Below are positions 4,411-33,851 of a stretch of 33,851 nucleotides of DNA, one piece after another; within the stretch, counting starts at the first letter, position 1, and every line of letters starts with the position of its first letter. The stretch covers positions 8,869,685-8,903,535 of the forward strand of contig NC_057755.1 in NCBI RefSeq assembly GCF_004010195.1, in the 5' to 3' direction. The position numbers were made by a program, and so were the translations under genes. This DNA comes from Chiloscyllium plagiosum (lineage: Eukaryota). The notes under the pieces were generated by a model. The model made no database searches and was not told the DNA's origin. It saw only the letters and a list, made by a program, of their open reading frames with translations.

Positions 4411-4453
4411 CAAGCTGGTTCTAAGCCAAATGCAAGCCACTTTCGGCCATCGT

Positions 4454-10727: not shown

Positions 10728-10797
10728 CAAAAATGCCAACAGCTGCAAGTATTGGGTAGTAAATACGTGCTATCTGTAAGATTGCTGAATATTCCAT
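10728..10797 (-). CDS. First coding exon of a GPR139/GPR142-like class A GPCR (exon 2 expected left of the window)
   Basis: ATG at 10797; 70 nt encoding MEYSAILQIARIYYPILAAVGIF+G, followed by a canonical donor GTAAGT (10727-10722), phase 1. Matches the start of TM1 and the phase of the paralogous exon 2 acceptor at 24321. Confidence 0.8.
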
Positions 10798-11610: not shown

Positions 11611-12736
11611 TATGAAAGAACGGAGCTCTGCATTTATGACATAAAGTCAGTATGATTTGACAGCGTTATAAGAGTAAGGGCGAGAGTGTGGTGCTGGAAA
11701 AGAACAGCAAGTCATGCAGAGTCTGATCAGCAGGGAATTGAGGTTTCGTGCAAGAGCCTACATGAGGAATGAGTTTTGCAAGCTAATGAAATGGCGAGAT
11801 AAATGGGAGGTGGGTGAGACTGGGGGTAGTTAGATGAGAGTCCGATAGGGTGTTGGAGGTGGGTTTAAAGGTGATCGGTCAGAGTGGAGGGTGGAGTGGA
11901 CTAGAGGGAAGTTTACCAGGCAGGACAGGTCATGAGGATGGTACCGAGTTGAAAGATTGTAACAGGGATAAGACTGGGGAGGGGAAATGAGGAAACTGAT
12001 GAAGTCAACATTGATGCTGTGTGTTTTGTGGGTCCCAATGCGAAAGATGAGGCGTTATTCTTCCAGGCGTCGGGTGGTCAGTGTGTGATAATGGATAAGA
12101 CCCCGGATCTGCATGTCCTTGGCAGAGTGGCAGGGGAAGTTGAATTGTTCGGCCATGGGGCAGTGGGGCTGGTTGATCTGGGTGTCCCGGAGATGTTCTC
12201 TGAAGCGCTCTGCGAGTCGGTACCCTCTCACCCCAGTGTAGAGGAGATGGCATCGAGAGCAACGGATACAGTAAATGACATGCGTGGAAGTACAGGCCTG
12301 TTTTGATGGATGTAAAAGGCTCCTTTGGGGCCTTGGACTGAGATGATGGGGGAGGTGTGGGCAGAGGTTTTGAATTCCTACAGTGGCTACGGAAGATGCC
12401 GAGAGGAGAAGTGTGTGTTGCTGGAGTGCATGGATAGGAAAAGAGAGTGGCAGAGGGGATGGTTTTTACAGAAAGTCGAAAGGGGTAAGGAGGGAAATAT
12501 ACCTGGTGATACGGTCCATTTGTAAGTGATGGAAATGGAGAGGATGATGCAATGTGTACGACATTGGTGGGGTGGAAGGTAAGGACCTGGGATTTTCTGT
12601 CCTTTTTGCACTTGGAGGGGTGGGGTTCGAGGACGGAGGTTCAGGACGTGGAGGTCATGCGCTGGAATGCACCTCGCCACTCACCACCAACGAATGGCTG
12701 AAAGGAACCTTACACATCCATCCCGACGCTTTCCTG

Positions 12737-13741: not shown

Positions 13742-13816
13742 TGTAGTGATTGAGTTGCATCATTGTGGCCGGGAACCTGGTCCGATCAGAGAGCCCTTGC
13801 TGACAGAAATAAATAG
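13742..13816 (+). mobile_element. 5' part of the short Gypsy LTR, ending at a Tx1 insertion
   Basis: TGTAGTGAT...aacctggtccgatcagagagcccttgctgacagaaataaatag matches 4521-4563. Confidence 0.72.
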
Positions 13817-14940
13817 CAGGGATGCAGGGCAGGGGTAGACATCCGGTTCGTGGCCACCACCATCAGACGCCTTAAAATGGAGGTGCTCGGACTCGACGTA
13901 GTGCATCAGTTGGAGGATGCTCAGGTGTGCATTGGAATCCTGTCCGCGCTGACCTCTGCGCGGATAGGATTTCACATTGGCCCCCAAGATCCCTTACTTT
14001 CCGCGGGAGCCTGTGCCCCACAACCTGAGCCGCCTCCAGAACTTTAATTTTGTCCCTTTTAAGAACATAAAAAGGCGGGCCCTGTATCGACTGCTTCTGC
14101 ACACCGTCCACCTCTTTTCCTTCATCCACCATCCGGACACGCCCATTTGCCACGGGGCGGTGGAGATCCCCAGTGGAGGGCTGTCTACGTGGGAGCCCTC
14201 TCCCTGTCTCTCGGGGATCTGGGGTGGAGGGTGCTGCCCGCAGCGGTCCCCTGTAACTGCAGATTGCGGTGGTTCACGGACTCCCAGCCCAACTGCTTGT
14301 TCTGTGGCGCTGTGGAGTCCGTGGACCATGTGTATATTGGGTGTGGGCGTTTCCACTCCCTTTTGATTTTCTCAACAACCTCCTCCTCTGCTTTTGGTAT
14401 CTCTTCAGTACCACGTTCCTGAACTTCAGACACCAGGTACAGAGAGGGGAGGGCAGGTCTGAAGACCTCCTTGTGGGTCTTTTCCTGGGCCTGGCCAAAC
14501 TGGTCATAAACAGATCCAGGCAGCAGACCGTGGAGGGGTCGTTAGGGCCGACTGCCTGACCCTCTTTCACGGTTACATTAGAGCCTGGGTGTCTCTGGAG
14601 AAGGCGCACACGGTGTCCACCGACACCATACAGCTGTTCAGGGAGAGGTGGGCACCGCAGGGAGTGGAGTGCATTATTTCCTCCTCCAACTCTATTTTGA
14701 TTTAATCCCTGCCCTCCTCTTCACTGTTCGATCACACAGCATTGCCCTGTCAGAAGGGCACTGCTTGTCACTGGCCACTCGGGTCTTTCGTTTCTTCCTG
14801 GTGGTGGGAATTTGAATACAGATTCGTGCACTTTGTGCCCATCACTGTGTCTCACACCTTCACACACACAACATGTGTGCTGTGGAAAAATAAGCACTAC
14901 CACAGTTAGGCGGTAGTGTGGGGGTGAAATATAATACAAC
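13817..14940 (+). mobile_element. Tx1-clade non-LTR retrotransposon, 5'-truncated copy A
   Basis: ORF2 C-terminus with a CCHC finger (CLFCGAVESVDHVYIGC) and LGLAKLVINRSR. Stop at 14703-14705; 3'UTR with terminal stem-loop and A-rich tail. Frameshifted. Confidence 0.88.
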
Positions 14941-14976
14941 AACAGGGGTGTCAGAGGTTCTGGAAAATAAAATGAA

Positions 14977-16093
14977 TAGCAGGGTTGCAGGGCAGCAGTA
15001 GACGCCTGGTACATGGCCACTGCCATCCGAAGCCTTAAAGCAGCGGAGCTCAGACCTGACGTAGTGCACCAGTTCGAGAGTGCTCAGGTGTGCGGTGGAA
15101 TCCCGTCCGTGCTTACCCAAGCCCGACGGAATTTCACATTGGCCCCACGGTCCCGGACTTTCCCCGGGAACCTGTGCCCCACAACCTGAGCCGCCTCCTG
15201 AATTTTAGTTTTGTAACATTTAAGGACGTAAAAAGGTGGGCCCTGTATCGACTGCTGCTGCATACCGTTCACCTCTTCTCCCTCATCCACTGCCCGGACA
15301 CGCCTTTGCGTGCCCATTTGCCACCGGGCAGAGGGGATCCCCATTGGAGGGCTCTCCACGCGGGAGGCCTTCCCTTCCCCTCAGGGGTGGATGGTGCTGC
15401 ATACAGCAGTCACCTGCAACAGCAGGTTGAGGTGGTTCACATACTCCCAGTCCAACTGCTTGTTCTGTGGTGCTGTGGTGTCCGTGGACCTTGTATATAT
15501 TAGGTGTAGGCGTTTGCACTAACTTTTTGATTTTCTTAAGAACCTCTTTCTCTGCTTTTGGTTTCACTACAGTCCCACGTTCCTGATCTTTGGGCACCCG
15601 GTATGGAGGAGGGAGGGCAGGTCTGAAGACCTCCTCGTGGGTCTGCTCCTGGGCCTGGCCAAACTGGCCATAAACAGGTCCAGGCAGTGGGCCGTGGAGG
15701 GGGTCGTTAGGGCCGACTGCCTGCCCCTCTTCCGCGGTTATGTTCGAGCCCAGGTGTCTCCGAAGAAGGAGCATGTAGTATCCACTAAGAACCTGGAGCT
15801 GTTCAGGGAGAGGTGGGCGTCGCAGGGAGTGGAGTGCATTATTTCCCCCTCCAATTCTATTTTGATTTAATCCCTGCCCTCCTCTTCATTGTTTGATCAA
15901 ATAGCATTGCCCTTTGATGTCAAGGGCATTACTTGTCAATGGACAATTGAGTGCTTCTTTTCTTTCTGGTTGTGGAAACTGCTCTTTGTGTCTCTAACTG
16001 TGTCTCACACCTGCACACACACAACATGGGTGCTGGGGGTAAAAAAGCACTACCGCAATTAGGCGGTAGTGTGGGTGTAATTAAAGAATATAA
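14977..16093 (+). mobile_element. Tx1-clade element, 5'-truncated copy B
   Basis: Collinear with copy A. CLFCGAVVSVDLVYIRC and LLGLAKLAINRSRQ; stop at 15868-15870. Confidence 0.88.
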
Positions 16094-16572
16094 TATAAAC
16101 AGGAGGGACAGTATGTTCATCGATCCCATAAATTGTCAAAGAGTGAACTTTATATCTCACGAGCTTCAGCCTGGATCTCTTTGGACAGTGAAGTTGAAGA
16201 AATGTCTCCCTACATTGCCTGGTAGCATCAATACCTATAAGAAAAGAAACAATAAAAAACTTTGGTGCGAAAATCTTCCCAACTTGCAAAAAGGCAGATG
16301 TAATGTTAACAGAGACTGCTTGGTGCTCCACAACTAGAACTTAAACAGGAAACAGCTTGTCAGCTGTCCAATGTGTTTTTGTTTCAGTCGTCACAAAACC
16401 AATGATTTTCATTACAGGCTGAGTGTGTTGTGCCGCGTGGAACTGTCACAGGGCTGGAGAAACACTTTCCAGCTAAAATCTTCAAGCACTGTAGTATTCA
16501 CAAAGATTCACTGTGAAATATAAAGAAACCACATAAGATGAGAAAAAAACATCAGAAGTGTCAGAGGTCCTG

Positions 16573-17972
16573 AATGTAAAAAATAAAAAAAGAAGGAAAT
16601 AATGAAGAAAAAATAAGCAGCACGGTCAGGGGATCTGTTCTTTGAGGGAGCTGGATCAGTGTGTGGAGGGCTGTCCACTTCTCTGTGTTGAGAAGGAGAG
16701 GAGAGGAGATTGACTTCTGAACAACCTGGAACCACCCAGTCAGTGTATTCACTGCTGTTGTTGTCTTCCTATTGATGAGGAGTTCATTTCCAAGTTTTGT
16801 TTTTCTTTATTGTTTATTGTGATTGTTTGTTTTCAGGATTTTCTTTCTGCTTATTTCTGTTAATTTGAATCTGAGCTCAGCTGCACAGACAGCTACTATC
16901 ACTGTTGCTGCTGCTGCTACTGCCTCGTCCTGCTTTTGCCACTGGAACCTGTACCTCGCCTGAACCCCAGCACCACTGCTTTTGACTGTGAATAACTGCA
17001 CTTGGGGCCTGCTCCCACGACTGCTGCCTGGGGCCTGCTACCAGTGAAGCTACCTGGGGCCTCTTCCACTGCTCCTGCTTGGTCCTGCTCCTAGTTCTGC
17101 TGCCTGGGGCCTGCTCCACTGGTGCTGCTTGGGCCTGCTCCCACTGCTGCTGCCTTTGGCCTGCTACCAGTGTGCTATCTGGGGCCAGCTCCACTGCTGC
17201 TGCCGATAATCGAGACTGTCGGTACTACTGCCCCAGCCTCACAGTCCCGTGACTACCATCGCCTGAGGCCCATGCAGAGGAAAGGAAGCCGGGGTTGCCC
17301 AGCAGCACGTAATCGTGAGCGCAAACACGGCAGACCCTAGCTGAACGTATGCTGGAGTAACCACTACACTAATCTCAGCTGCTTCAGCCCCAGCTGCAAC
17401 CCCGATCCCCTTCAGCAACCTTACTAAATTCCTGGGGGTCAAAGCCTAACCCTACCAAATTATGACCATCAAGACTTGCAGTAAGGCCATGGCTAATGTG
17501 GTCGGCCTGCTCGGCATCGCTTCTGCTGCCTGAATGTACGGGAAGGCCATATTTTTCCTGAGCACCGATCAGGTGGTGCACCTGGCCAAAGAGAAGGGGC
17601 TCACTGTGGGCGGGAATCACCAACCTGTCGATCCATTAGATGTCACGGCCCACAGGATCGTGATCTTAAATATCCCACCTTTCATTTTCATTTATTCCTC
17701 CCCCATCTCAATACTTTGGGGGAAATCTGGTTGGATGCCCAACCGCTCCTGCTTGGTCTGAAGGACCACACTGTCAGACATACATACTGCTTCCAGCGCC
17801 AGGTGTTCATTTGCCTGGCCCGGGATGAGATCACTGACGGCTCTTCCACCCTCCTCCATGAGGGCATGGCGTACCTCATCTTCTGGATGGTGGACAGCGT
17901 GCAGTGTCACATGTGCCGCGAGGTGGAGCACATACGGAGGAACTGCCCCACTCAGAAGGCTGCCCAGCCCAA
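16573..17972 (+). mobile_element. Tx1-clade element 5' half (5'UTR plus ORF1 N-terminal part), copy C
   Basis: ORF1 remnants MYGKAIFFL...KGLTVGG...RIVILNIPPFI and zinc knuckle CHMCREVEHIRRNC (about 17904-17946). Ends abruptly against inverted Gypsy gag. Confidence 0.82.
16900..17235 (+). repeat. Degenerate GGGGCCTGCT(C/A)CCACTGCTGC tandem repeats in the 5' region of Tx1 copy C
   Basis: About 8 imperfect copies of a 20-30 bp motif. Confidence 0.7.
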
Positions 17973-18275
17973 GCACTGTTGGCCTGGTGAGATTGCCCAC
18001 TTCTATCAGCATATCCTGCAAGTGATATGTTCCACTGGATGCATTTTCGAATGACAAAACCATTTGAAGTGGTAGTTGAAGTCTAGTTGAATTTCAGCTA
18101 CTAGGCGCTTTTGCATGGATACATCATTAATCTCACACTCGTCACCAATGAAGTACTTCCACAGAGGCCAATAACTCGTAACAAAGTCACCCTTTATTTA
18201 CACATGGAAACCACTTAACACTGGTCTGGTTTTCTCAGAGACAGCTGTCAGCGCAAACAGAACTGCTGACCCTCT
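17973..18275 (-). mobile_element. Gypsy element piece: 3' half of LTR, PBS and gag fragment
   Basis: LTR half 18275-18149 (AATAAAGGGTG...TTCA), PBS TGGTGACGAG at 18147-18138, then CEINDVSMQKRLVAEIQLDF, resembling the Mag-type gag motif CGIND..IQKRLLAE. Confidence 0.8.
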
Positions 18276-21200
18276 TTTTTTTATGTTTCCCCGCACGACC
18301 ACAAAACGTCGGTAGTGCTTATTTTTCCCCAGCATTCTTGCCATGTGCGTGCAGGCGGAGGAGCAGAACAACAAGTGAGTAAATCTTTATTTATATTCAA
18401 CCAGGAGGAAAAAAAATGAAATACCAGAGTGGTCACTGACAAGCAATACCCTTCTTGCCAGAGGGCAATGCTGAATGAGCAAAAAGGTAAATGGGAGGAC
18501 AGGGATTAAATCAAAATAGAGCTGGAGGGGCACATAAAACAACCCACTCTTTGTGGTACACTACTGTATATTTATTTTTAAAAATTTTCCCCCACTCTAC
18601 AGTCTAACAGTGGTAGCGCTTATTTTTCCCCTGCACCCATGTCGCGTGTGTGCAGGTCTCAGATACAGTGAAGAACAACGTGTGCAAATCTTTATTTATA
18701 TTCCACCACCAGGACGAAAGGAAACACGCGAGTGGCCAGTGGGAAGCAATGCCCTTCTCGCCAAAGGACAATATTGAGTGAGCAAAGATGTGATGGAGAT
18801 GACAGGGATTAAATCAAAATAGTGCTGGCGGGGCAAGTAAAGCACTCCACCCCTTTTGGTGCCCTACTGTTTATTTACTAGTTCTCTTTTATTGACCCCC
18901 ACACTGCAGCCAAACAGCAATACTGCTCATTTTCTGCAGCACTCATGTCTTGTGCGTGAAAGTGTCAGACACAGTAAAGAACAACAAGTGTCTAAATCTA
19001 TATTTATAATCCACCATCAGGACGAAAGGAGACACCCGAGTGGCCAGTGACAAGCAGTGTCATTCTCGAGAGAGGGCAATGCTGTGTGATCAAAAGGTGA
19101 AGCGGAGGGAAGGGGTTAAATCAAAATAGAGTTGGGCAAAATAAATCACTCCACTCCCTGCGGTGCCGAAAACTCCCTGAAAATCTCGAGGATGTTGGTG
19201 GATACCACGTGCTCCTTCTCCAGGGATGCTCAGGCACTGACATAACCGTGAATGGGGGACAGGTTGTCGTCCCTAACGGCCCCCTCCTCGGCCCGCTGCA
19301 TGGATTTGTTTATGGCCAGTTTGGCCAGGCCCAGGTGCAGACCCACGTGGAGGTCCTCTGACCAACTTCCTCCACAATCGTTGCCTAAAGATCAAGAGGA
19401 TGGGAATAACGTGCAACCAAAAAGAGAGGAGAAGGTTTTCTTGGAGGAGGTTCAATGTAAAAGTGTCGCTGCAAGACGTGAAGGCAGATATACACCAGTA
19501 ACTGACTGCCCTCCTCAATAGGGAGACTCTGAACCTGTGTCGCGACCCTGTGTGTGTGTTTTTTTGTCCCAGAAGAATTGAACCTATGTTCTCTGGATAT
19601 GAAGGACAAAATCTGGAGAAGGGACTAAAGGGAACACCGGGCCCACAACATGGCGGCCAACAGTTTGTTTATGACCAGCATTTGGCTCTGTAAGATAGCA
19701 CTCAGAGCAGTCCTGTGGCTTAGGCGTGTCGAGACTTTGACCTCCAAATCCTGGCAATTGGCTGGCCATGAATTAAACCTCTAGATAGAGGAGCTAGGTG
19801 GACATGGGTGGCACTCCAGCTGAACACCTGTAATTCATCCAACAGAGAGTCTAACCGCCACGGACTGAGCAGTAGTCCAGAGTATTTGGCTCAGTTGATT
19901 TTGGAAGAAGATGCCGCTGAGTACACCACCTGGCACTTGTGCAGCCTTGCCAGGTCAGCCGGGGCGATGAAAGTGAGGAGTACTTCGTTGGCATTAGCCG
20001 AGAGGACCTCTCCACTGCCCATGCCGTGCAGATACAGCTTGAACAACCTCTGCCGCTAGAGGCACAGGATACGCACAGAGAATACAGCTTGCTGGATAGG
20101 GGGCAGCCTTGATACACTCCTCTCCCAACGCCCACCAAATCGGTTTAACCTATATACAGTTACTGGGAGGACGAGGCAGTCGCGTGAAATCCCTGGCCCT
20201 CACCAGGAGTGCACCAAGGATGTTTCTCACACGGTTTCACGCCTTTGCGTCCAGCCCAGATTCTTGGCGTGCAGCCTGGGCTGACCAGAACACTTTATCA
20301 AAGGAGCTGCAGTGTTCGAGTGCCACTTGGGCTCTATCCCGAAGACTGCAAGCTTCCTATGCAAATTCAGAGTTCCTCAATGGAGATGAGGGGGAGCTCG
20401 GTGTCAGGGTGGGATGGGGAGGAGCTGAACCTGGGACTCAGAAACCTCTCTGGAGATGGACTCCGCATCATCCCTAATGCCCACCACAGAACCCTAACCC
20501 TCCTCCAGGAAGTCACCCTTGGTCATCAGCCCCTCCTCCACTTTGAGCGTGGGGTCTGGTGCGATATCACCAACTGGCCTCAAGCGACACCTAGCGACAC
20601 CGGCGTAAAAGTCCTCAGTGCAGCCCATTTTGGGGTGCCCCGAGGTTGGGTCATCGGGTGGAAAAGATTCGGGTCCCGCTCCTCCTCGGACACTGGGACG
20701 CCGTGGTCCTCAGGGAAGGCGTCCTCCACCACAGCCAAGTCGTCTGGAAAAACAGTCTGGGAGGGAGGAGTGTGGGTAACACCTTTGAACCTGCACTGCA
20801 TGAAAACCCAGCCGTATTAAAATGGTTGTTATTGCAACACACACCACGGGCCACGTCGTGCACAGGTTCGTACCCTTGGGCTGGGGCTGCAGTGGCAGCA
20901 GCAGTGGGGCTCCAGGTAGGTCAGGCCATGGTGCAGGAAAAGTGAAAGGCGCCACTGATACATCCCCTTGGGAGGGTAGCAACGTTGGAGTGCCAGGGGA
21001 ATCCTCCCCCTCGTTGGCACTGCACCTTTTCACTGAAGTGATACTGCCTTGAGGAATGCTCTCCCCTCCTTGCCCGTCCTGATGGTCGTGGGGGCTGAGG
21101 GGCCGCCCCCAACTTTTTACAGAATCTGATTTGCTGGGGAAAGGCAGAGGGCGTGGCAAGGATCCCGAGAGCCATCTGTGTCACTTCCTGTCCCTCCCCT

Positions 21201-21588
21201 GTTTTTTCATGTATGGGCATAGCTTCCTGTCCAGAACTCAGAGACACAGCTGCTGCAAGATGGAAGGGCAGCAGCGGGTTCCTCAAGGTTAGTGCCAAGC
21301 GTCTGGGTGAGTGGGGCAGAGCCTAGGCTCAGAAAACTTTGGGCCAGGTGTTGTAGGGCCAGGACCAGACACCAATGCCCCAGGGGTTTCTGTAATGGGC
21401 TTGGGGTCAGGAGGCATGGATTCCGGGCTGGTGGGACAGGATTCCGGTGCCGGGGCGATGTTGTCACAGCCACACCGCCATTGTCGTGCTGGGTTGGGGC
21501 AGGGCGAGGGTCCGATTTGGAGGGCGGGGACGCGGTTGTCTCCACAAGGACGGACTTGGTCTTCTTCTATGCCCTCTGTCTGGAGGGA
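18276..21588 (-). mobile_element. Tx1-clade element 3' half (copy D): late ORF1, internally deleted RT, ORF2 C-terminus and three tandem 3' ends
   Basis: RT motifs GVYQGCPLSSKLYSL (about 20120-20076) and VLSANADEV (YADD-like, about 20009-19981); PDFVLHIQR/QFFWDK; C-terminus homologous to copies A and B. 3'UTR units at about 18276-18558, 18572-18862 and 18877-19165. No endonuclease region seen. Confidence 0.85.
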
Positions 21589-22397
21589 CATGGGCTCAAT
21601 GTTATTGGTTATTGTGGATGCCCATTCAAAGTTGAGCCTGCATAGAGTTCATGTGTCAATCTCGCTGATGATGATTGAATGGCTGGGAGCATCATCCGCG
21701 ATTAACAGACTCCGGGAAGCATAGGATATGGAGAGTGGGACGTAATTTTCCAACAGGAATTTCCAGTATTTCCTGAAGTCGAATGGTATTCAGCGTGTTC
21801 AGACAGTTCCATAAGTGTCGCTGATGGGAAAAGACACTACACCAGGTTAAATAAGATAACCCTAGTACTACAGGGAGGGTGAAACACCATCAGGATCACC
21901 AATGCATTTTCTTATCGAGAACGACAGTTCAGTTCATTAAACGAAGTTTGGTGATGAAAACAAATAAATAGTGGTGCATGTGTACAAGGGAAATTTGACG
22001 TCCGCTTCCATGAATATCAATGTTTGGGTAAGTGATGCGGTCCTGAACAAACATGTAGATTATATGAAAGCTGTTCCATTGCAAACTGGGCAAGAACAAT
22101 ACATATCTTTCCACTCAGAACAGCCAGAAAATCTATCAGAAACCGTGGGGTCTCCCCTCTGTCTAGCATAGAAGAGACCACTGTGTCTGAGATGGATGCA
22201 GCCTCGATTCTGTTACCACTGAAGAAGAGGAGAAAAATCTTCTGTGACACTCTGGGGGATAGAGACTGGTTACGGTCCAGTGCACATCACCCGTGACTGA
22301 GTCAGTGTCAGAGGAAAAAGACCACAAGTGAAAACATCCCGGGAAAGGCTACAACAGATCGAGTAGGCTTATATCTCCGGAATTGGTGGGGGAGCAA
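21589..22397 (+). mobile_element. Gypsy integrase remnant and polypurine tract
   Basis: MGSMLLVIVDAHSK, FQYFLKSNGIQRVQTVP and VLNKHVDYMK motifs with stops and deletions. PPT GGTGGGGGAGCAA at 22385-22397, directly before the TG of the LTR. Confidence 0.85.
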
Positions 22398-23127
22398 TGT
22401 CATCATTGGAAAAAGGACAATGTGCATCAGACTGACTATGAAATTCTTCACTGGAGCTGTTAACCTGGGTCAATCAGGGAGCCCTTGTTGACACAGTTAA
22501 ACTGGAAATTGTGTCTGACAAGTGGATGTCTCTCTCCTGCAGTGATGTTCGAGGCCGGGTGTCCTTGAAGAGGGAGCATGCAGTGTCCACCAAAGCTCTC
22601 GATGCCTTTAGGGATAAATTGTCTCTGCTGAGGACAGAGTGCTTTATTTTCCCCTCCAAATTCATTTTGATTTCATCTTTACCCCTCCATTCTAATTCAC
22701 TTTATTTTCATCGTTGGCCTTGCCCTTATTGGGCTTTGATTGTTAATGGTGCCCTGGTCACATGAGTGTTTTTTTCTGGTGCTTGAATTATCACATAAAG
22801 TTCCTGTAGAATGGGATCTATTTTAATGAGTGTTTACACACACACGCACGCGCACACACACACATACACACACACACACACACACACGCACAAAACCATT
22901 GAGACATGGGTACTGTGGTGCAAATATCAGCGCATTGGTCAAGTGCATTGGTCAAGTAGGAGATAAATTAGAGAAAGCAGAAAAGGAAATCAATGGGAAA
23001 AAAAAACAGAAGAGTCTCTTCACTCGAGGCCCTGGCTTTGAGCTGGCTGGTTGGAGCCCATGTACTGTGAACTTGGAAATAAAGGGCGACTTGGTGAATT
23101 GATACCAGCCTCCGTGCAGTTATTTAC
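22398..23127 (+). mobile_element. 3' LTR of the Gypsy element, split by a Tx1 3' fragment
   Basis: 22398-22510 matches the LTR 5' half (gctgttaacctgggtcaatcagggagccct). 23004-23127 matches the 3' half (aaataaagggcgacttggtg...taccagcctc). Confidence 0.8.
22511..23003 (+). mobile_element. Diverged Tx1 3' fragment containing a (CA)n microsatellite (22836-22892)
   Basis: VRGRVSLKREHAVSTKALDAFRDKL aligns with VRAQVSPKKEHVVSTKNLELFRERW of copy B. 3'UTR similarity. Confidence 0.8.
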
Positions 23128-23329
23128 GTGTTAAATGAAAGCATTCCTATGTTATGAATGAGAATTGATCAGAAATCTGAATTGGTGTATAAGAGAACAG
23201 GTACTTGTGTGTCGGCAGATTGAGTCTAAAGAGTTCCACAAGGGAGGAAGCTAAAATTTACAACTGTTTCTGTCAGTTATCTGAGCACAAATTACCGGGT
23301 AAGTTTATTTCCTTTGTGCAATGATGCAG

Positions 23330-23522
23330 GCTTTGGGGCTGGGCCACCATTGATCGCCCATCCTTAGTTACCTCTTGAAGGTGGCTCAGAGCCGCTTCTT
23401 ATCCAAGAGTTGGTAGGCCTACGCACAATACCCTCAGGGAGGGAATTCCCGGATTTTGACCGAGTGACAGTGAAGCAACAGGGATATATTTCGCAGTAGA
23501 AATTGTGAGTGACTTGGAGGAG
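23330..23522 (-). mobile_element. LINE 3'UTR fragment (same family as 25115-25360)
   Basis: Reverse complement resembles ctccaagtcactcac...aaatatatc.ctgtt.cttcactgtcactcggtcaaaatcc.ggaattccctccc. Confidence 0.65.
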
Positions 23523-24321
23523 AGCGTATACGCGAGTGCTGGCACATCAACTCAGAAGCCGTAGCCTGAATCCATTTTTTTTAAACACAAGTATTGGATC
23601 ATTCCATGTCTTGTCTTTGTAATTATAGTTTATTATTTGCCAGTTGAAAAAGTGCATGACATATGTCGTCCACAACAGGATAAAATTAACAGACAATTCA
23701 AAGAGCAAGATGATGGATTTTCTCCAGTTTACCACCTCTGGATCAGTGTTATTCTGTCCATTTCTGTGCACCTGGAGGTGACAGCGGATGTGACTATCTG
23801 TTATAATATTCCTGACAATCAAAATATTGAATACTAAAATTAATGCATTTGGAAGCAATTGTGTAATTATACTGCCAATCCATTCATACACATTCCAAAA
23901 TAATGATGTATAATCGGCTGATATTAAGATGCAAAACCATGATACATTGTCAATAATGAACGAAGGAATACATACAAAATACCAAGTAATTCATTGCAAG
24001 CAGCTGACGACACTCACTATTACAATAACCACAAATGCAGTTGCAATATCTTGCTCTTAGATTCTGGCAACAAACTAATGTAACGCAAAAGCAACTGTGA
24101 ATCAAACTAAAAAATCCAAGGCTGCAGGGAGCAAGGCTCAAGGCATACTAGGAGTGAGGAGTAAGAAATTAACTGGGAAATTAAAAAAAATAATTCATGC
24201 AGTAAGACATTAAGGAGGACAAGAAGGAGATTACCTGTAGACATTGGCAACAAATACCGAGTGATACATTTTGAGAGCCCACAATTGCCCCTATTCTACA
24301 TCTCAATTCCTACTAAATTAA
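23515..24321 (-). pseudogene. Exon 2 of a GPR139/GPR142-like GPCR pseudogene
   Basis: Acceptor ttcttacAG (24323-24322), phase 1. Reads (V)NLVGIEM*NRGNCGLSKCITRYLLPM...CCQNLRARYC...WFC...LLPNALILVFNILIVRNI...DPEVVNWRKSIILLF...FILLW...LLS*CASTRVY. In-frame stops at 24298-24296 and 23549-23547, plus frameshifts. Confidence 0.88.
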
Positions 24322-25114
24322 CTGTAAGAAATATTAAGAAATGCAAACCTCTTCACGATTAGATTCACAACAAAAACGTCAGCATAACATGTTTGCTAAA
24401 TCAGACCAATTGCCTCAGATTAATATATTAAATGAATTACATGATGAATTTTGAGAAGTGACGGTAGAATTATGGATTCAATCAAACCAACATGAAATTA
24501 GGCATGTTGGGAACTATTAGACAAGCAGAGCAAATCAACAAATAAATGAGAATAAGAACCATAAGAAAATGAAATATTTTAATGCAAGTACGTCATGCTA
24601 AAAAAAATCACTGATAGGTTTAGCAGAATTTTATGCTTACTAAACTGATAATGGAAGAAACAATCAAATCAAACTCATAATACGAGCAAGATACTTTGCA
24701 TCAATGGACCCATTAGAAACTGCGTACATGACCAATCACACAACGATATATATTTTATGAGGTGGAACGGAGATGGTTGAATGTGGGGGCTGAGTTGTTG
24801 GACTGGACTGTCACTGAATTGGGTCCCATGCTTTCCCATGTATGCTAATCACAACTCTGCAGAGACTGTTAATGAGGGGAGGTAAAGCTCAGAGATGGGG
24901 AGGTATAGGAGCATATGAGAATCATTATCAAACTTGGTAAACGTGATACTTCATCAGGCCAGTAACACTGAAATAGTAAGGTGTGATTAGAGCCACTTGA
25001 TTGGGACCACATCCGCAAACATATCCACCTCATCTCGGACAAATTCACCAAAAATTAACAGAAAGCAATAGTCACACCCACAAACACTTCGATACAGAAT
25101 GACGGAGCATCTGA

Positions 25115-25360
25115 TACATGGTAACATCACACGGTGCAAGTTCCTTGAAAACACACATCATCCTGACTTGGAAATACATCACTGTTCCTTCATTGTTGCT
25201 CGGTCACAATCATGGAGCTCTCTGCCCAAGGACGTTGTGGGTAAACCCACAGCAGACAGAGTGCAGCAGTTCAAGAAAGTGCCACCATCTTCTCAAGGGG
25301 CGAACAGGGAAAGGCAATAAATACTGGTCTGCCAGCTCACATCCCACACACGAATGAAAA
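25115..25360 (+). mobile_element. LINE 3'UTR fragment (CR1/L2 group)
   Basis: tgcaagttcc...catcctgacttggaaatacatcactgttccttca...gcagcagttcaagaa...caataaatactgg; homologous to 9465-9800. Confidence 0.7.
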
Positions 25361-25484
25361 AAATGATTAGTCACAATTCAAAATTCATTCGAATATATCA
25401 ATTAGTGTTCAGTTTACTTGTGTCTGCAATGGTAAATTTTGTGGAGTGATATAAAGAGTGGTGTTTGGGGCAGAATGACGAAAT

Positions 25485-25798
25485 GGGCGACACGGTGGCA
25501 CAGTGGTTAGCACTGCTGCCTCACAGCGCCAGAGACCCGGGTTCAATTCCCGCCTCAGGCGACTGACTGCGTGGAGTTTGCACATTCTCCCCGTGTCTGC
25601 GTGGGTTTCCTCCGGGTGTTCCGGTTTCCTACCACATAAGATAGATTTACAGGTTAGGTGAATTGGCCATGCTAAATTGCCTGTAGTGTTAGGTAAGGGG
25701 TAAATGTAGGGGTATGGGTGGGTTGCGTTTCGGCGGGTTGGTGTGGACTTGTTGGGCCGAAGGGCCTGTTTCCACACTGTAAGTAATCTAATGTAATC
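25485..25798 (+). mobile_element. HE1-type tRNA-derived shark SINE, relatively young
   Basis: A box TGGCACAGTGG at 25496-25506, B box GGTTCAATTCC at 25540-25550, CR1-like 3' tail ending taatctaatgtaatc. CpGs retained. Confidence 0.93.
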
Positions 25799-26525
25799 GA
25801 TTCACTCAAAACCCGGAGTCCACTTCCAGCATCGAAGAGTTTATTGATGTTACACCAGAAGCTTCTTCACTGAACAAATGAAAGGAATAAATGTTTATAC
25901 ATTCATTTTATCCCACCAATGCAGATCAACTATATTATTAATTTCTTACATACACACCCAATCTAATTAGTCATGTGACTGTAAGTTCAGTGATGGGCAG
26001 CTTTATAGACAGCCCTTGGTCTTCTATGAAGTCATGGTGTTTCCCAGATGCACCTATCTCTACCTTGGAGCTTTCTCAGTGCTTACTGTATATGACCACA
26101 TTTCAATGCTGCTGAGGTCTACACCTGTATTTCAATCCGGTCTACAATAGTGTGGGATCCCTCCCTTTATGCCATGAGAAGTTTTAGTGTAATCTCTTTA
26201 AAGCTAATTCAGTTTTTTTAAGGTTATGTGCATATATATTCAATCTCTGTGACTGATTCAAAACATTTAACGGTGAACATCTGGAAATCTCAGCTAATGT
26301 AAATATAATTGTGATGGTTCTCAGACTTTAAAGCAGCTGAGTATGCAACTGTTCTATCAACATACTCAAGGTTATCATCATCCAGCTGTTTCTGCACCAA
26401 TTGCAGCTGCATGTCTCTGACAAAACTCTTTGTGTATTAACTTAATATGTTACCTTGGATGTGATCTGTCTGCAAAGCTACAATTGTCACAATTCATGCT
26501 TCACTTTAAAACGATATCAAACAAG

Positions 26526-27334
26526 TGTTATGAAGTTGAAAGCATGTACTAAACCTTTAAGAGAGAGGAAATACTGAACTGAACTTAGAGATAGCAAGCA
26601 ACTGTGTATGTGATTAATGGCAGTCCCGGAATGTACTGGAAAATTGAAAGTATGTAAGATTTGACTGTGAAATGAATAATTGAGTTTGATTGCTGTTTTC
26701 AGAACAAATAAAATTTAATCATTCGTTTTAAATTGTGCCAAGGATACTAAAACCCAAATAAGTTTGAATGTATTGTTTTGCCAAAATCAAAACAATGAGG
26801 CCAATGAGGTGGTCCAATGTCAGGTAATGTAAAAATGTGGACATTTTGAACATTTGTCGAAAGATAAACTCCTGGAGATCTAATTGCCCATCTAATATCT
26901 TGCTCGCAAACGGATTAGAAAACATTCTCTTTCATTGGGGCAATATCGGGTGAAACATACCCGCCATTAAAAAGAAAGAGGATGACCGAGAGAGAACAGC
27001 AGCCAGAAGAGTGAAGACATAGAAGAGGACAGAGACTGTTTGATTTGAAATTAAGTTTATGTAATCTTAATAAGTGTCTTACTATAAGACCATGTTGTTA
27101 TAGGGATGGAGGCAGATCATAAGCAGTTAAGTGAAAGGAGTGTTCAGAATTGTAAATAGATTTTTTTGTTTACTGTTCATTTTAGCGTAAGAAAATAATT
27201 CGATGTTATTTTCTTGAAACGCTGGATTCTTGGAGTTCTTGGTCATAGATATTTTAACATATTATTGGGCAAGGCGAACTTTTTATGTGTGATTGGTTGA
27301 ATTCTCAGTGGGGTTCGACCTCCGTGTCGTAACA
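26526..27334 (+). mobile_element. Solo LTR, 809 bp (Gypsy-type)
   Basis: Terminal inverted repeats TGTTATGA...TCGTAACA and a 4-bp TSD CAAG (26522-26525, 27335-27338). Strand is tentative. Confidence 0.8.
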
Positions 27335-27377
27335 CAAGCTATTTCTTAGTCTACTGCAAACCATTTTAGTCCATCTT

Positions 27378-27528
27378 GATAGCGATATGGACGTGGTCAG
27401 CCAGGGTTACCTGACTGGGGCTGTTAACCTCCTGTTAAACAGGAGGGTCAGGGCTTCTGTCTACTATGAGAGCTGGCTCCGTCGATGCCAGGCCATGCAA
27501 TGCAAGTAAAAGGTGAATTGGGGATGGG
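27378..27528 (+). mobile_element. Deleted copy of the short Gypsy LTR (paralog of 4454-4687), empty Tx1 target
   Basis: ctgactggggctgttaacct...taaacaggagggtcagggcttctg; target motif at 27436-27451. Confidence 0.68.
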
Positions 27529-27599
27529 TCCGTGATCCAATTGCTGGTGTTCACGATGTCCTGTTGTGAAACATCTAAAGTTTGATGTTGCTTTTCAAA

Positions 27600-28508
27600 C
27601 ATAGAGTCATACAGCACAGAAACAGCATCTTCATTCCAACATGGCCATGCCAACCAGGTTATCCAAATTGATGTAGTCCCATCTTCCTACATATGGACCA
27701 TTTCTCTCCAAACCTTTCCTGTCCGTGCACCTAGGCAAATGCATTTTAAATATTGCAAGTGTATGTGCATCTATCACATTGCCTGACAGTTCATTCCACA
27801 CTCTAACCACAGTCTATGTGAAAAACCTGCCGCTTCGGTCGGTTTTAAATCTTTCTTCTTTCCCTTTAAAATTATGGTCTCCCACCTCGATCCCCCCTCC
27901 CCCACACTTAGAGAAAATACCATCATTTTTTGCCTTACCATTTGTCTTCAGGATTTTATAAGCTCTCTAAGGTATCCCTCAGTCTCTAACACTGCAGAGA
28001 AAGTAGCCCCAGACTATTCAGCCTATCGTTATAACTCAAACTCTCCACACCTGGCAACATCCTGACATTTTTTAACTGAAACCTCGCGAATCTCATACGA
28101 TCCTTTCGATAGCAAGTGACCAAGACTATAGTCAGTGTTCCAACACTGGAGTCACCAATGTCCCGTACAACCACAACATGACAACTGAACACCTGTGCAT
28201 CGTGATCTGAGCTATGAAGCATGCTAAATCCCTTCTTTACCAGCCTGATTACCTGTGATGTACTATGAGAACAACTATGTAACTGAACCCTGAGATCCTC
28301 CATTTGACAGCACTACCCCGGACCCTTCCATGAACTAAAAAGTCCTGCCCTTATTCATTTAACCAAAAGGTAGCACCTCTCATTTAGTTAAATTGAGTTG
28401 CATTTACCACTCCTCAGCCAAGTGACCCAATCCATCTAATCTTCGAGAATCTTCACAGTCTGCTGTAGCACCAATGTTGGTGCCACCTGCAAACTTACTA
28501 ACCATGCA
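27600..28508 (-). mobile_element. Old CR1 3' portion (paralog of 5170-6289)
   Basis: RMLPGVESLSYNDRLNSLGLLSL; collinear with unit 1. Confidence 0.82.
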
Positions 28509-28511
28509 TCA

Positions 28512-29790
28512 CACAGAACGTAGAACAATACAGCACACAACAGGCCCTTCAGCCCTCGATGTTGCACCGAGTTGTGAATTAATCTCAGTCCATCCCCCTG
28601 CACTATCTCATCATCATCCATGTGCTTATCCAAGGATCATTTAAATCTCCCAAATGTGGCTGGGTTACCACATTGGCAGGTAGGGCATTCCACAGCCTTA
28701 CCATTTTCTGAGTGAAGAACCTGCCTATGACATCTGTCTTAAATCTATCAACCCTCAGTTTGTAGGTATGTCCTCCCATACAAGCTGATGTCATGATCGT
28801 AATGAAAAAGGCTTTCACTGTCTATCTTATCTAATCCTCTGATCACCCTGTATGACTCTCTTAAATCGCCTTTTAGCCTTCTTGTCTCCAATGAGAACAG
28901 ACCCGAGTCCCGTAGCTTTTCCTCATAAGACCTTCGCTCCAGACCAGGAAACATCCTAGAAAATCTCGTCTGCACCTTTTCCAATGCTTCCACATCCTTC
29001 CCATAATTGGGCGATGAGAACTGAACGCAAAATTCCAAGTGCGACCACATTAGCGTTTTACATAGTTGCAGCATGATTTACAGCTCCGGAACTCAATCCC
29101 TCTACCAATAAAATGTAACACACCGTATGGCTTCTTAATAGTATTATCAACCTGGGTAACAACTTTCAGGGATCTATGTACGTGGAGAGAGGATCCTTCT
29201 GCACTTTCAGACGACCAGGAATCTTTCCATTGATCCAGTATTCTGCCTTCCTGTATTCTTCCCAAAGAGAATCACCTCACATTTATCTGCATTGAACTCC
29301 ACTTGCCATCTCTCAGATCAATTCTGCAGTCCATCCAAGGACCCCTGCAATTTGCAACATTCTTCCACACTGTCCACTACTCCACCGACATTAGTGTCAT
29401 TTGCAAACTTACTAACACATCCATCTAAGCCTGCGTCCAAATCATTTATAAAAATGACAAACAGCAGTGGTCCCAAAGCAGGTCCCCTGCGGCACACCAT
29501 TAGTAACTGGACTCCAGGCTGAATATTTTCCATAAACCACCACTCGCTGACTTCCTCCTGAAAGCCAGTTTCTAATCCAAACTGCTAAATCACCCTCAAT
29601 CCCATGCCTCCGCATTTTCTCCAACAGCCTACCATGTGGAACCTTTTCAAAGGCTTTGCTGAAGTCCTTGTACACGACTCCAACTATCCTACCCTCATCC
29701 ACATGCTTTTTCACATTCTCAAAAAGCTCAATGAGGTTTGTGAGACATGACCTGCCCTTGACGAAACCATGTTGACTATCTGCATTCAAG
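28512..29790 (-). mobile_element. 5'-truncated CR1/HER1 LINE with RT domain, unit-2 specific
   Basis: DSQHGFVKGRSCLTNL, DFSKAFEKVPH, GVPQG, LGPLLFVIFINDLD, SKFANDT, ALEKVQTRFSRMFPGL. Frameshifted. Confidence 0.92.
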
Positions 29791-30271
29791 TTTTTACTTA
29801 TGATTCTTCTTATTAATAGTGCAATAAGAAGAAGGAGAATCAACGTTTCACAGAATAGCCCTTCATCAGGAGTTCAGTTCATTCAAGCTCAAAACAGATA
29901 GACCCAGTGTCAGCAGTAACTTTTTTGGCAGAACACGTTGCTGCTAATCTGATGGTTCGGAATTGAAATTACTTCGCGTTGCTGTGTTTTATAATGTGCG
30001 ACAATATTTTACGTCTCTTGCGAATCATTCCCCTTTGAAAAACAATCAAAAAAGTTGGATATAGGATCACTCAATATTAACAATTGTTGGACAGTTATTG
30101 CAATTATCACAAAATGATAAACGCATTGTGAACTATGTGGAATAAGTAACCAACTCACAGACGGAATATAAGTGAAAGTTTCATGTACTCGTTAGTTTCA
30201 TGTACTCATTGGCTTCATATAACATTTCTTTCAAATAATCATGTGAACACATTTAACACGTTATACAACAT

Positions 30272-30787
30272 ATCGTGAGCAGTTTTGGAGCCCGTATCTA
30301 CGGAAGGATGTGTTGAACTTGAACGTGGTTCAAAGGAGGTTCACAAGAATGATCCTGGGGATGAAGAGTTTGTCATATAAGGAGTAGCTGAAGACTCTGG
30401 ATCTGCATACAGTGGAGATTACAAATTTGAAAGGGAATCTGATTCAAACTTACAGTCCGCAGAGAGACCTGAAGGGGGTGGACATGGAGAAGGCGTTTCC
30501 ATTCGTAGGACAGAGCAGGATCGAAGAGCACGGCCATAGGATGAGGGGACAAGCCTTCAGAACTGAGATGAGGAGACATTTTTTCAGCATAGTATGGTAA
30601 ATCTGTGGAAGTCATCGTCACAGGAAGGCTGGGAGAAATAAATATTGTTGATGTATGAGGGAATCTAGGGATAAAGGAAGAATGCAGGAGAATGAGTGTT
30701 AGGAATCATATCAGCCACAATTGAATGTCAGAGCAGATTTGCCGAGCTATGTAGTCTCATTATGCTTCTATATCTTATGATCTTATG
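30272..30787 (+). mobile_element. CR1 3' end (paralog of 8246-8768)
   Basis: QFWSPYLRKDVLNLNVVQRRFTRMILGMKSLSY; tcttatga tail. Confidence 0.85.
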
Positions 30788-30894
30788 GACAAGTAATAAA
30801 CAATATGTGATGCGCACAAGTGTCAAGCAATTATCATCTTCAAAAAAAGAGATTCTAACCATCGCCCTTTGATATTTGTTAACATTTCCATCAT

Positions 30895-31800
30895 GCAATC
30901 CACCACTATCCACATCCTGGGGATTACCAAGGACCCAAACCAGCCCTTGCTTAGCCATATAAGCATTGTTACAAAAGAGCACGACATAATCTGCTGCGAA
31001 ACAGTCACCTCCTGTATTCCCGAAGTCTGATCACCACCTACAAGACACAAGTCAGGAGTGTGATGGAATACTCCCCACTTGTCTGGATGGGTACAGCTCC
31101 AACAACACTGAGGAAGCTCGAAACCACCCAGGACCTCGGAAAATTCTGACGAAGATTCATAACAGACTTGAAAACTTAACTTTTCTTTCTGTCTCCACAT
31201 AAACTGACAGAGCTGCCAAGTATATATCCAACATTTTATTTGATTGCCAGATATTCAGCATCTGCTGCAGTTTGCCTTTATTCCAGGATATATCAGCCCA
31301 CGTGATTGCAACCAAATCCACAAACCTTCAGTCTGTCCCCCTCACCCCCTCACCTACTCAATTACAGCAGGGTGTATCATCTACAAGACACATGGCTGCA
31401 GCTCACTGAGGTTCCTCAGACAGCTCCCTCTCACCCTCACAGCCGCTACTGTCTAGAAGCAGCAGATGGATGGGAATGACACCAATTGCAACTTGTCTTC
31501 AAGACACTCAACTTCCTGGCTAGGAAACAAACCACCTTTGCATTAGTGTTGCTGGATCGGTTAAAACTTGTTTAGACTGCTTCATGGATAGGAAAGGTTA
31601 GGTCGATATGGGCTAAATAGAGGCAAATGGATTAGTTGAATTCAGGAAAACTGATTCGCATGGATGAGTTGAATCGAAGCGTCTGTTTTCGTGTTGTATG
31701 TCTATGTGGGTGCTCTTCCACCAAACGGTCTACACTGGTTTGACAAGGCAGCTCACCACCACATTCTGAAGTGTCACTCGGGATGGGGAGTAAATGCTGA
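30895..31800 (+). mobile_element. Old LINE 3' portion with nested fragments (paralog of 8875-9800)
   Basis: YKTQVRSVMEYSPLVW motif; collinear with unit 1. Confidence 0.7.
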
Positions 31801-32187
31801 CACTGCCTACTCTGTATTGGAACTAAATTTTCTGCAAAATATTTATAAATAAACCTGCTTAAGCAGACGGAAGGAAACAACACTGAACTACTAGTGAAAC
31901 CACTAGGAACGCATAGATTGGAAATAACCAAAGCCATTTTAAAATTTGTAAAATTTTAATAAAGAATGAGGGAGTTAATTAGGTTGTACACAAACATAAA
32001 ATCCACAAGAACTGCAGATACTGTAAATCACAAACAAAATAAAAGTTGCTGGAAAAGTTCTATGGAAGTGTTACCAGATGTGCGATGTTGTTTCTGATTT
32101 CTCTTGCCAGATGCTACCAGACCTGCTGAGCTGTTCCAGCACATTTTGTTTTTGCTTATGCAAACATAGCTGGATTTAATGACTTAT

Positions 32188-32257
32188 CAATAATGCCAAC
32201 AGATGCAAGTATCGGGCAGTATATATGTGCTATCTGTAAGATTGCTGAGTATTCCAT
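32188..32257 (-). pseudogene. Exon 1 of the GPR139/GPR142-like GPCR pseudogene (pairs with exon 2 at 24321)
   Basis: 70 nt, MEYSAILQIAHIYCPILASVGII+G. Donor reads ATAAGTC (32187-32181) instead of GTAAGTC. Confidence 0.82.
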
Positions 32258-33125
32258 TCTGACAAGTCAGGTCTCTCTGTTTTTGTGGAGTCAATGCTTC
32301 TGTCCACCAAAATATAATAATATTGTCAATACATCCTCATTTTGTTTGGAAACAAAGCGTCCAGTGAGAAATTGAATCTTTTTAAATCACCAATTGCATT
32401 ATTTGCAGTAATTTGAACAAGCAGGAAATTAACTGCTTCCCTCTGAGAATTATTGCAGAATATTTGTTTTTTTAAATAAATGCCATTAATTTCTCGAGAA
32501 TTTTGATTTGATTTGATTGTCATGTGTGCTCAAGTACAGAAGTGCATGAGTACAGTGAAAAATGCACCATGTCGCCATTTCTGGCTCCATCTTAGCTACA
32601 AAGGTACCTCATACAAAATCTTATGTACAGGGTCGAAAAATAAATTGAAAAGTTAAAGGATTAATTTTGAAATATTTCTGGAAGACAGAACAAAACATTC
32701 CACTTTGCACTGAACGTATTCTGTACCGTGCTGAGATTCATAGTTTTCCTTTATGATAGTCTTCTAAGTCGACAAAACAATGGGACAGGTTTTCCAGTGA
32801 GTGGGAATCCCACAGAGATTGATATACGTGCCCTTTTCTTTCTGATGAAAGAACAGCATTCTGTATTTCTGAGTGGAGATTCCATTCAGGGTTACACTCA
32901 GGAATATGGAAACGTACTTCCATCCTGACAGATATCTACTGGCTAGAACTGTCTTGCAATGCGTAATGTCAGTGTGAATTGATAGTGCAATAAGAAGAAG
33001 GTGCTCGGTGGGGAATGATGAAGGGCATCAATTCAACCGGGTGCAAGCTGGTTGAAGTGCCAATGTTCCAGGTATGTAGGGTGATGACTGGTAAGGAGTT
33101 TGAATGCCAACTGGGATGTGAGTGG

Positions 33126-33207
33126 TGTAGTAATTTAGTTCCCTGACTGAGGCTGTTGACCTCGTCCAATCGGAAAGCCCTGGCAGAGAGATAGAAACAG
33201 GAGTGTC
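33126..33207 (+). mobile_element. 5' part of the short Gypsy LTR, ending at a Tx1 insertion
   Basis: TGTAGTAAT...ctgactgaggctgttgacctcgtccaatcggaaagccctggcagagagatagaaacaggagtgtc. Confidence 0.78.
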
Positions 33208-33851
33208 GCCCTCAAGACGCTGCCTGTCTTTTACCAGGACCTGATCACTGTCTGGAACATGGTCGAATCGCGTCGCGCCTACCCTCCGGCTGGAGTAGCG
33301 GCTGTCGTCAGGGAGCCGTTGCTCAGGAATCCGCACCTCCGTACCCGCGGGTTCGAGTGGCTGTCGGAGGGGAGGGCCGCGGCGGCGAGGGTGACCAGGG
33401 TCGGGGACGTGCTGGGTGCCGGGGGCCTGGGCTGGACGCTGCCGCAGGACATAGCAGGCAGGGCAGCGGTAGACGTCCAGTACGTGGCCACCGCCATCCG
33501 ACGCCTCAAAACGGCGGTGCTCGGACCCGACGTAGTGCACCAGTTGGAGGACGCGCAGGTGTGCGGTGGGATCCCGTCCGAGCTCACCCCAGCCCGGACG
33601 GAATTTCACATTGGCCCCAAGGTCCCGTACTCCCCGCGGGAGCCTGTGCCCCACAACCTGAGCCGCCTCCGAAATTTTAACTTTGTTTCGTTTAGGGAGG
33701 TGAACAGGAGAGCCCTGTACAGACTGCTGCTGCACACCGTCCACCTCTTCTCCCTCATCCACCGTCCGGACACGCCTTGGCGTGCCCATTTGCCACCGGG
33801 CGGTGGGGATCCCCAGTGGAGGGCTCTCTACGCGGGAGTCCTCCCCCTTCC
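33208..33851 (+). mobile_element. Young 5'-truncated Tx1-clade copy E (ORF2 fragment), runs off the right edge
   Basis: Uninterrupted frame ALKTLPVFYQDLITVWNMV...EPLLRNP...LYRLLLHTVH...PQWRALYAGVLPL over 644 nt. CpG-rich; homologous to copies A and B. Confidence 0.9.

Follow-up and report, generated by a model that had tools for sequence, protein, structure and literature searches.

Organization of the window

We analyzed a stretch of 33,851 nucleotides (nt) of the Chiloscyllium plagiosum genome, hereafter called the window, which is a nest of decayed repeats. The analysis concerns a long interspersed nuclear element (LINE) of the Tx1 clade, found repeatedly at one position, beside the TATA box, of a ~235-bp Gypsy-type long terminal repeat (LTR). 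An earlier reading of the window, made without database searches (the sequence-only reading), had proposed this position as the target of the LINE. The proteins and repeats of the window were examined by Pfam scans of the open reading frames (ORFs) and by tblastn. The L-numbered loci mentioned below (L002 to L136) are places sampled elsewhere in the C. plagiosum genome, whose size is 3.56 Gb. The LTR copies and Tx1 insertions of the window, together with an integrase remnant, are as follows (UTR, untranslated region).

4454-4687, plus strand: empty, diverged copy of the target LTR; its site at 4553-4580 consists of the TATA box followed by GGAGTGTCAGAG, and the copy aligns full length with the ~235-bp LTRs elsewhere, contiguous across the site
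13742-13816, plus strand: LTR left half (U3 to TATA box) with which stack A begins; starts with TGTAGTGATTG, like the LTR family, and ends with AAATAAATAG
13817-14940, plus strand: Tx1 copy A1, 5'-truncated (ORF2 end, 3'UTR, A-rich tail), matched by tblastn to proteins P0001 and P0003
14941-14979, plus strand: target fragment (AACAGGGGTGTCAGAGGTTCTG) separating A1 from A2, together with a repeated piece of the left LTR end
14980-16096, plus strand: Tx1 copy A2, 81% identical to A1
16097-16111, plus strand: target fragment that follows the A2 tail, without continuation of the LTR
16551-16611, plus strand: target fragment, then an A-rich tail-only insertion, a pattern also found in L105, L008 and L015
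16612-18054, plus strand: Tx1 copy E, 5' part only; the motif passes directly into an R-like leader, which is followed by tandem repeats (17000-17204) and by an ORF1 that encodes a CCHC knuckle
18136-18279, minus strand: LTR right half (R-U5) downstream of stack B, with a primer-binding-like site at 18136-18148
18280-20135, minus strand: Tx1 stack B, consisting of B1 and B2 (short 3'UTR units with one common junction) and B3
21590-21811, plus strand: Gypsy-type integrase remnant (tblastn E 4e-7 with protein P0015), ~600 bp upstream of the LTR holding copy C
22440-22502, plus strand: LTR left half for copy C
22503-23003, plus strand: Tx1 copy C, with a strong 5' truncation; its 3'UTR includes a (CA)n run
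23004-23127, plus strand: LTR right half after C
27377-27545 (ends approximate), plus strand: second empty, diverged LTR-like copy, with the motif at 27436-27451
33126-33207, plus strand: LTR left half and 8 nt of the motif (ending in AACAGGAGTGTC) ahead of copy D; 81% identical to a typical copy
33208-33851, plus strand: Tx1 copy D, young, starting at ORF2 residue ~921 and running off the window

The uninterrupted LTR sequence at 4555-4580 reads TATAAATAGGAGTGTCAGAGATTCTG. Both empty copies are diverged (75-80% identity to typical members), and neither the ORF Pfam scan nor tblastn detected Gypsy pol similarity beside them. At the filled sites, Tx1 sequence abuts the LTR left half at 13816/13817, at ~22502-22528 and at 33207/33208. 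Scanning of the window with a Tx1 3' anchor detected four 3' ends (14909, 16062 and, on the minus strand, 18911 and 18604), and two further diverged ends were read by eye (minus strand, ~18300; plus strand, ~23000). All six are followed by target-derived sequence and lie in sense orientation to the LTR, as the sequence-only reading had stated. The motifs that it had quoted were all recovered, at 4555-4580 and 27436-27451 for the empty site, and at 14941-14962, 16097-16111, 18279 (minus strand) and 23004 onward after the Tx1 tails. Moreover, LTR halves flank the insertions, so that the motif is not an integral part of the Tx1 terminus.

The individual insertions differ in their extent. A1 has a weak zf-RVT match in the ORF scan, and B3, which carries an internal deletion, extends to ORF2 residue ~645. 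An A-rich stretch follows the motif at 16551-16575 and leads to a second motif, which runs into the R-like leader and ORF1 of copy E; the segment 17378-17967 of this copy is 77% identical to the ORF1 regions of full-length copies. The primer-binding-like sequence after the LTR right half of stack B is TTGGTGACGAGTG, and an LTR left half was looked for upstream of this stack and not found. A (CA)n microsatellite has grown in the 3'UTR of copy C (22840-22890), where other copies have a short CACACA run.

A1 and A2 have one common 5' junction and B1 and B2 have another; because the junction is common within each pair, each pair probably represents one insertion followed by tandem duplication. Counted in this way, the window records these independent events: A, B3, B1/2, C, D, E and one tail-only insertion. 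Copies A, B3, C and D are truncated at different points, and the 5' end of the element is present in E. Descent of all local copies from one insertion by duplication is not the main pattern, since 5' junctions and ages differ; the two pairs A1/A2 and B1/B2 are the exceptions.

Identity of the inserted element and of its target

In order to classify the inserted element, we compared its proteins with known Tx1 and L1-type sequences. The open frame of copy D is 58% identical to the 622-residue protein fragment P0001, which matches the Xenopus 'Transposon TX1 149 kDa protein' with an E value of 1.5e-138 and 41% identity over 99% of its length. A search of the genome with the Xenopus Tx1 protein gave 49,738 first-look candidates, 36 of which were scored, yielding 12 loci; all of them hold DNA 89-99% identical to D, six at 97-99%. 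The 925-residue ORF2 frame of a family copy, L068, contains Exo_endo_phos at residues 55-217 (25.4 bits; cut-off 24.5) and RVT_1 at residues 509-758 (111.7 bits), that is, an apurinic/apyrimidinic (AP)-type endonuclease N-terminal to the reverse transcriptase. This frame is 52% identical to the Xenopus Tx1 ORF2 over 883 residues (876 bits), as compared with 27% identity (277 bits) to an L1-type ORF2. In two copies, ORF2 is preceded by an ORF with a CCHC motif; the Pfam scan of the window ORFs gave no match for ORF1. On the basis of these domains and pairwise comparisons, the inserted element is assigned to the Tx1 clade, in agreement with the sequence-only reading. Since D is 97-99% identical to other copies, and A2 and B are only ~84% and ~77% identical to long copies, the identities point to a family that has been active over a long time. 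Long N runs interrupt young Tx1 copies in L135, just past the window end, and inside L073 and L065.

The target was characterized with a 301-nt query spanning the empty site, which gave 3271 first-look candidates. All 40 scored copies were contiguous across the site. Alignment of 30 copies defined a unit of ~235 nt with TG..CA ends, containing a CCAAT-like box, a TATA box, the motif and AATAAA. Most copies have no common flanks, and duplications of 5 bp are readable in L036, L044 and L058; for these reasons, most of them are classed by their sequence as solo LTRs. Other copies retain parts of the internal region: a TGGCGA..-type primer-binding-like sequence is found 1 nt after the LTR in L045, L047, L050, L084, L085, L113 and the window (18136-18148), and a purine run (polypurine tract) precedes the LTR in L041, L048 and L057. 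Upstream of a 3'-type LTR copy, Integrase_H2C2 was matched with 33.6 bits, together with a weak rve match. The closest homologues of this integrase (E values down to 3e-32) carry PF13975, PF00078, PF17917, PF17919, PF17921 and PF00665. These homologues have the protease, reverse transcriptase, RNase H and integrase domains usual for Ty3/Gypsy elements. Of the pol domains, integrase was the one observed beside this LTR, and in the window a remnant of it upstream of copy C was all that was detected. Taken with the TG..CA ends and the 5-bp duplications, the integrase, on which the assignment rests, classes the target as a Gypsy-type LTR, as had been proposed.

Specificity of the insertion site

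The genome-wide counts given here rest on samples of 29, 39, 20 and 12 loci and on short flanks. In order to analyze what follows Tx1 3' ends, the last 246 nt of A2, ending before the motif, were used as query (1039 candidates, 40 scored, 29 loci outside the window). In 24 of the 29 loci (L002-L012, L014-L019, L021-L025, L027 and L029), an A-rich, variable tail is followed by the LTR motif, and the sequence often continues with the remainder of the LTR or with a further Tx1 piece of the stack. Heterogeneous 3' flanks are thus not the main pattern. Within 100 nt, the 14-mer AACAGGAGTGTCAG was found with at most three mismatches in 16/29 flanks, as compared with 0.65% of 5800 shuffled flanks and 1/259 control windows; with at most four mismatches, it was found in 21/29 flanks, against 5.7% of shuffled flanks and 11/259 control windows. 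Of all 55 Tx1 3' ends contained in these loci, 29 pass the three-mismatch test, and many of the remaining ones retain just the first 6-10 bases of the motif before the next stacked copy. Additionally, the motif follows all six readable 3' ends in the 12 protein-selected loci. Every insertion, both in the window and in the sampled loci, is in sense orientation to the LTR, and the length and sequence of the tail differ at nearly every 3' end.

The reciprocal analysis started from the LTR. A 103-nt query that ends in the TATA box, and is therefore blind to what lies downstream, gave 3330 candidates, of which 40 were scored; 161 nt were fetched at each of 39 places, the query's own place being excluded. 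The LTR was empty in 27 of them. In six (L076, L080, L096, L097, L100 and L110), Tx1 starts 0-15 nt after TATAAAC, as confirmed by BLAST; all six hold 5'-truncated Tx1, and the truncation falls at five different points. L080 and L097 hardly differ and possibly represent a single locus that was assembled twice. In L105, a 15-nt duplication encloses a tail-only insertion; L101 passes through the R region into non-LTR sequence, and L086 is an unusual duplicate that contains an A run. In L082, L103 and L107, the LTR breaks into sequence without a Tx1 match.

Expression was examined in one single-cell poly(A) library with the same species label, which is 3'-biased; 1280 of its reads were placed on a long copy. 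The depth was 48-342 on the 3'UTR pieces and 0-2 over ORF2. First mates mapped to the minus strand at a ratio of ~30:1, corresponding to sense RNA; 115 reads pass from the last bases of the element into A runs, and the depth drops from 89.6 to 5.3 on entering the LTR right half. A second run yielded no reads. Sense transcripts thus carry the Tx1 3' end.

Considering these results together, we hold with high confidence that a recently active, still transcribed Tx1-clade LINE integrates by target-primed reverse transcription at one site of the ~235-bp Gypsy-type LTR. Several observations weigh against this. The 3' end in L013 lies in unrelated DNA (1/29) and those in L020, L026, L028 and L030 are ambiguous (4/29), and for this reason the specificity of the site is high but not absolute. 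Some repeated junctions are duplications (A1/A2, B1/B2 and the three units in L003), and the samples are small, with 40 copies scored of 1039, 3271 and 3330 first-look candidates. Regarding expression, the library is 3'-biased, and oligo-dT may have primed on genomic A-rich tails.

Two other origins of this distribution were considered. One or a few old Tx1 insertions might have been multiplied passively, by Gypsy replication or by segmental or tandem duplication, without any homing. The common junctions of A1/A2 and B1/B2, the single junction of the three L003 units, the near-identity of L080 and L097 and an old 7-9 kb duplication in the window are what such a history would leave; however, it accounts poorly for five 5' junctions in six blind-sampled filled LTRs and at least four in the window, for tails that vary at nearly all 3' ends, and for the fact that most LTRs are empty (27/39). 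Moreover, D is 97-99% identical to six Tx1 copies elsewhere, yet it lies in an LTR half only ~81% identical to a typical copy. We consider passive spread very improbable. Slightly less credible still is a generic, L1-like taste of the endonuclease for T/A-rich DNA, by which the LTR would be hit merely through its abundance and its TATA box. Although TATAAA-type sequence is where the nick falls and LTR copies number in the thousands, TATAAA-like sites in 3.56 Gb far outnumber the few thousand LTR copies, and the LTR-specific bases after the TATA box are present at 24/29 3' ends, in one orientation throughout.

Junctions and a proposed insertion mechanism

In most cases, the tail is followed by a 3' target copy that begins with ATAAAC or TAAAC, and the 5' copy ends between TAAAC and a point ~33 nt downstream; by this reading of the junctions, the target duplications are ~5-33 nt long. 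Because the 3' target copy begins with ATAAAC or TAAAC, the first, bottom-strand nick would fall in or just 5' of TATAAAC, at the TATA box; the second nick would fall 6 to ~33 nt downstream. By analogy with Xenopus Tx1L, the endonuclease would recognise the motif. The LTR carries TTCACTC ~30 nt after the TATA box, which fits the initiator consensus, and transcription of the LTR is predicted to start there. The stretch between the TATA box and this predicted start site would be duplicated on both sides of the insertion. As the duplication regenerates the target site, later insertions build up in head-to-tail stacks, to which local tandem duplication adds in some cases. Examples of such stacks are A and B in the window, the short pieces ahead of a long copy, and L129.

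An R-derived leader and possible capture of the LTR promoter

Past the end of the window, an N stretch is followed by a Tx1 3' end, an A tail, the motif and, without interruption, ~64 nt that align with LTR sequence beginning at the TATA box and reaching into R. This leader, which is ~90% identical to the R of the target over ~64 nt, precedes the Tx1 5'UTR, repeats and ORF1, and copy E in the window is laid out alike. A young subfamily has a shortened R-like stretch; a sample based on it gave 398 first-look candidates, of which 20 were fetched. All 20 copies, at different loci, have the same internal deletion and a fixed upstream joint. Upstream of this joint, which lies a few bases past the predicted start site, all of them carry a segment derived from the element's own 3' region. 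Their 5' ends vary, often with the motif ahead. Since deletion and joint are the same in 20/20 copies at different loci, the R-like stretch is, judged from the copies, inherited as part of the element, via RNA.

TATA-type LTR promoters are usually read by RNA polymerase II. A 5'-complete insertion would rebuild a U3-TATA-leader arrangement, with the U3 and TATA box of the LTR placed ahead of a Tx1 that begins like R, and the LTR promoter would then drive Tx1 from about its own first bases. The sequence-only reading had suggested that Tx1 may use the LTR as a safe harbour, may disable its host and may be transcribed from the LTR promoter. The last of these suggestions is favoured by the R-derived leader of 5'-complete copies, although the start site is a predicted one; by this arrangement, transcription of Tx1 from the LTR promoter has roughly equal chances of being right or wrong. 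The fuller scenario is that a Tx1 lineage copied the R leader of its target and inserts between the TATA box and the start site, so that a full-length insertion fires from the first bases of the LINE and takes over the promoter of the LTR. Such an element would be a promoter parasite without a promoter of its own, and at least one other retroposon may do likewise. In our judgement this scenario is evenly poised. The extra piece of the 3' region ahead of the leader (20/20) is not explained by a simple promoter model and counts against it.

The leader also allows two other explanations. The homing might be real and yet guided mainly by base pairing of the R-like leader and of the A-rich/TAAAC end with the target, rather than by the endonuclease. 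The ~90% identity of the leader to R over ~64 nt and the few common bases often seen at 5' junctions are compatible with such pairing, but heavily 5'-truncated and tail-only copies, which have no leader, reach the same site, and the Xenopus Tx1L endonuclease is described as target-specific in the main text of PMC4494074; we regard guidance by pairing as unlikely. Somewhat less unlikely, though still doubtful, is that the R-like stretch lies outside the Tx1 RNA and represents a target duplication of ~65 nt made at each full-length insertion, in which case no promoter capture would be built into the element. Duplications of up to ~33 nt are indeed seen in tail-only events (L008, L002), and the R-like stretch is contiguous with the motif in L136 and in copy E of the window; the shared internal deletion and upstream joint of the young subfamily (20/20 copies, different loci) speak against this and for the inherited leader.

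In L101 and L134 (C38 locus) and in the window at 16700-16760, a U3, TATA box and R-like leader are followed by ~60 nt in common with copy E (1750 first-look candidates). The L101/L134 type, an LTR U3 with the leader, was considered as Tx1, which was not supported: the sequence downstream has no match to two long Tx1 copies.

Comparison with known site-specific elements

Target specificity is a known property of Tx1 elements. The main-text passages of Kojima 2015 (PMC4494074) covered here list as Tx1 targets a piggyBac-type transposon, U2 genes, microsatellites, a Mariner and Harbingers. They state that the crocodilian families Tx1-8_Crp and Tx1-4_AMi prefer LTR retrotransposons. They also describe Tx1 families with U1 or U2 heads, discuss transcription from flanking target sequence, and cite Christensen et al. 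2000 for the target-specific endonuclease of Xenopus Tx1L. The novelty suggested by the sequence-only reading was therefore overstated, LTR-preferring families being already on record in that paper. Beyond this statement on crocodilian families, our literature search for this particular target, which covered main-text passages of Kojima 2015, retrieved no account of a Tx1 inserted at an LTR's TATA box, nor of a head derived from R.

Like the shark element, Tx1-8_Crp and Tx1-4_AMi target LTR retrotransposons, and Tx1-4_AMi has a borrowed head, derived from U1; they belong to another vertebrate class, and the head of the shark element comes instead from the R region of its own target. The passages covered of the main text name neither the LTR family nor the position of these insertions. 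Tx1L of Xenopus laevis, the founding member, likewise occupies one site inside another transposon, Tx1D, thereby forming composites, and is the source of the 52% ORF2 identity over 883 residues; its target is a piggyBac-type DNA transposon according to the same passages, whereas that of the shark element is an LTR. Keno, the snRNA-headed Tx1-Mar and SINEU are, as described there, also target-specific, with 5' ends taken from a promoter-bearing multicopy unit; in these cases heads and targets are snRNA genes or a Mariner, and the unit in the shark is a TATA-type LTR promoter.

A more distant likeness is seen with R2 and R1, which home to a multicopy unit, the rDNA, and whose truncated copies pile up at one site. 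Their dependence on the promoter of the target, through co-transcription, may be likened to the use of the LTR promoter proposed here. However, R2 has a restriction-like endonuclease and a ribozyme that frees its RNA, and in the shark element no ribozyme was seen and none was sought. Moreover, the shark insertion lies upstream of the predicted start site, whereas R2 and R1 lie inside the transcript.

Homing into another element is thus known in frog and crocodilian relatives of Tx1, and the shark case is a clear new example, not a new principle. The known picture of Tx1 biology is unchanged, and the possible promoter capture is the most interesting point. The case also lets one ask whether site-specific LINEs pick their sites in order to borrow a promoter. 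The element offers a vertebrate AP-endonuclease LINE with a long, defined target (more than 14 specific bases) and thousands of filled and empty genomic test sites, and is a useful system for how Tx1-type endonucleases read DNA. For annotation, it accounts for a frequent composite repeat of this genome, consisting of an LTR half, stacked LINE pieces and another LTR half.

Other repeats at the target site and in the window

In L126 and L128, the same LTR motif is directly preceded by the 3' end of another retroposon, which has an A tail of its own, and L086 contains a short form in which this 3' end is joined to the shared leader. From these joints, the second retroposon is possibly a non-autonomous partner at the same site. 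Additionally, a repeat of the tRNA-like short interspersed nuclear element (SINE) type, containing GGCACAGTGGTTAGCACTGCTGCC, lies in or beside the LTR/Tx1 composites of L014, L021, L079 and L121.

An old duplicated block (2243-11621 and 26015-32854, 74-79% identity) holds both empty LTR copies with flanks on both sides and has no simple LTR-element structure. An interpretation of the window as two Gypsy units, in each of which the 5' LTR would be empty and the 3' LTR filled, was rejected, the regions 4700-11600 and 27600-32850 being without Gypsy pol similarity; the sole RVT_1 match in these regions lies on the other strand. The minus-strand open frame at 29445-29873 has an RVT_1 match (E 1.2e-11) and belongs to another retroelement. 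Young local tandem duplications are present at 9527-10590 and 11197-11610 (533 nt at 98.7% and 208 nt at 97%, respectively).

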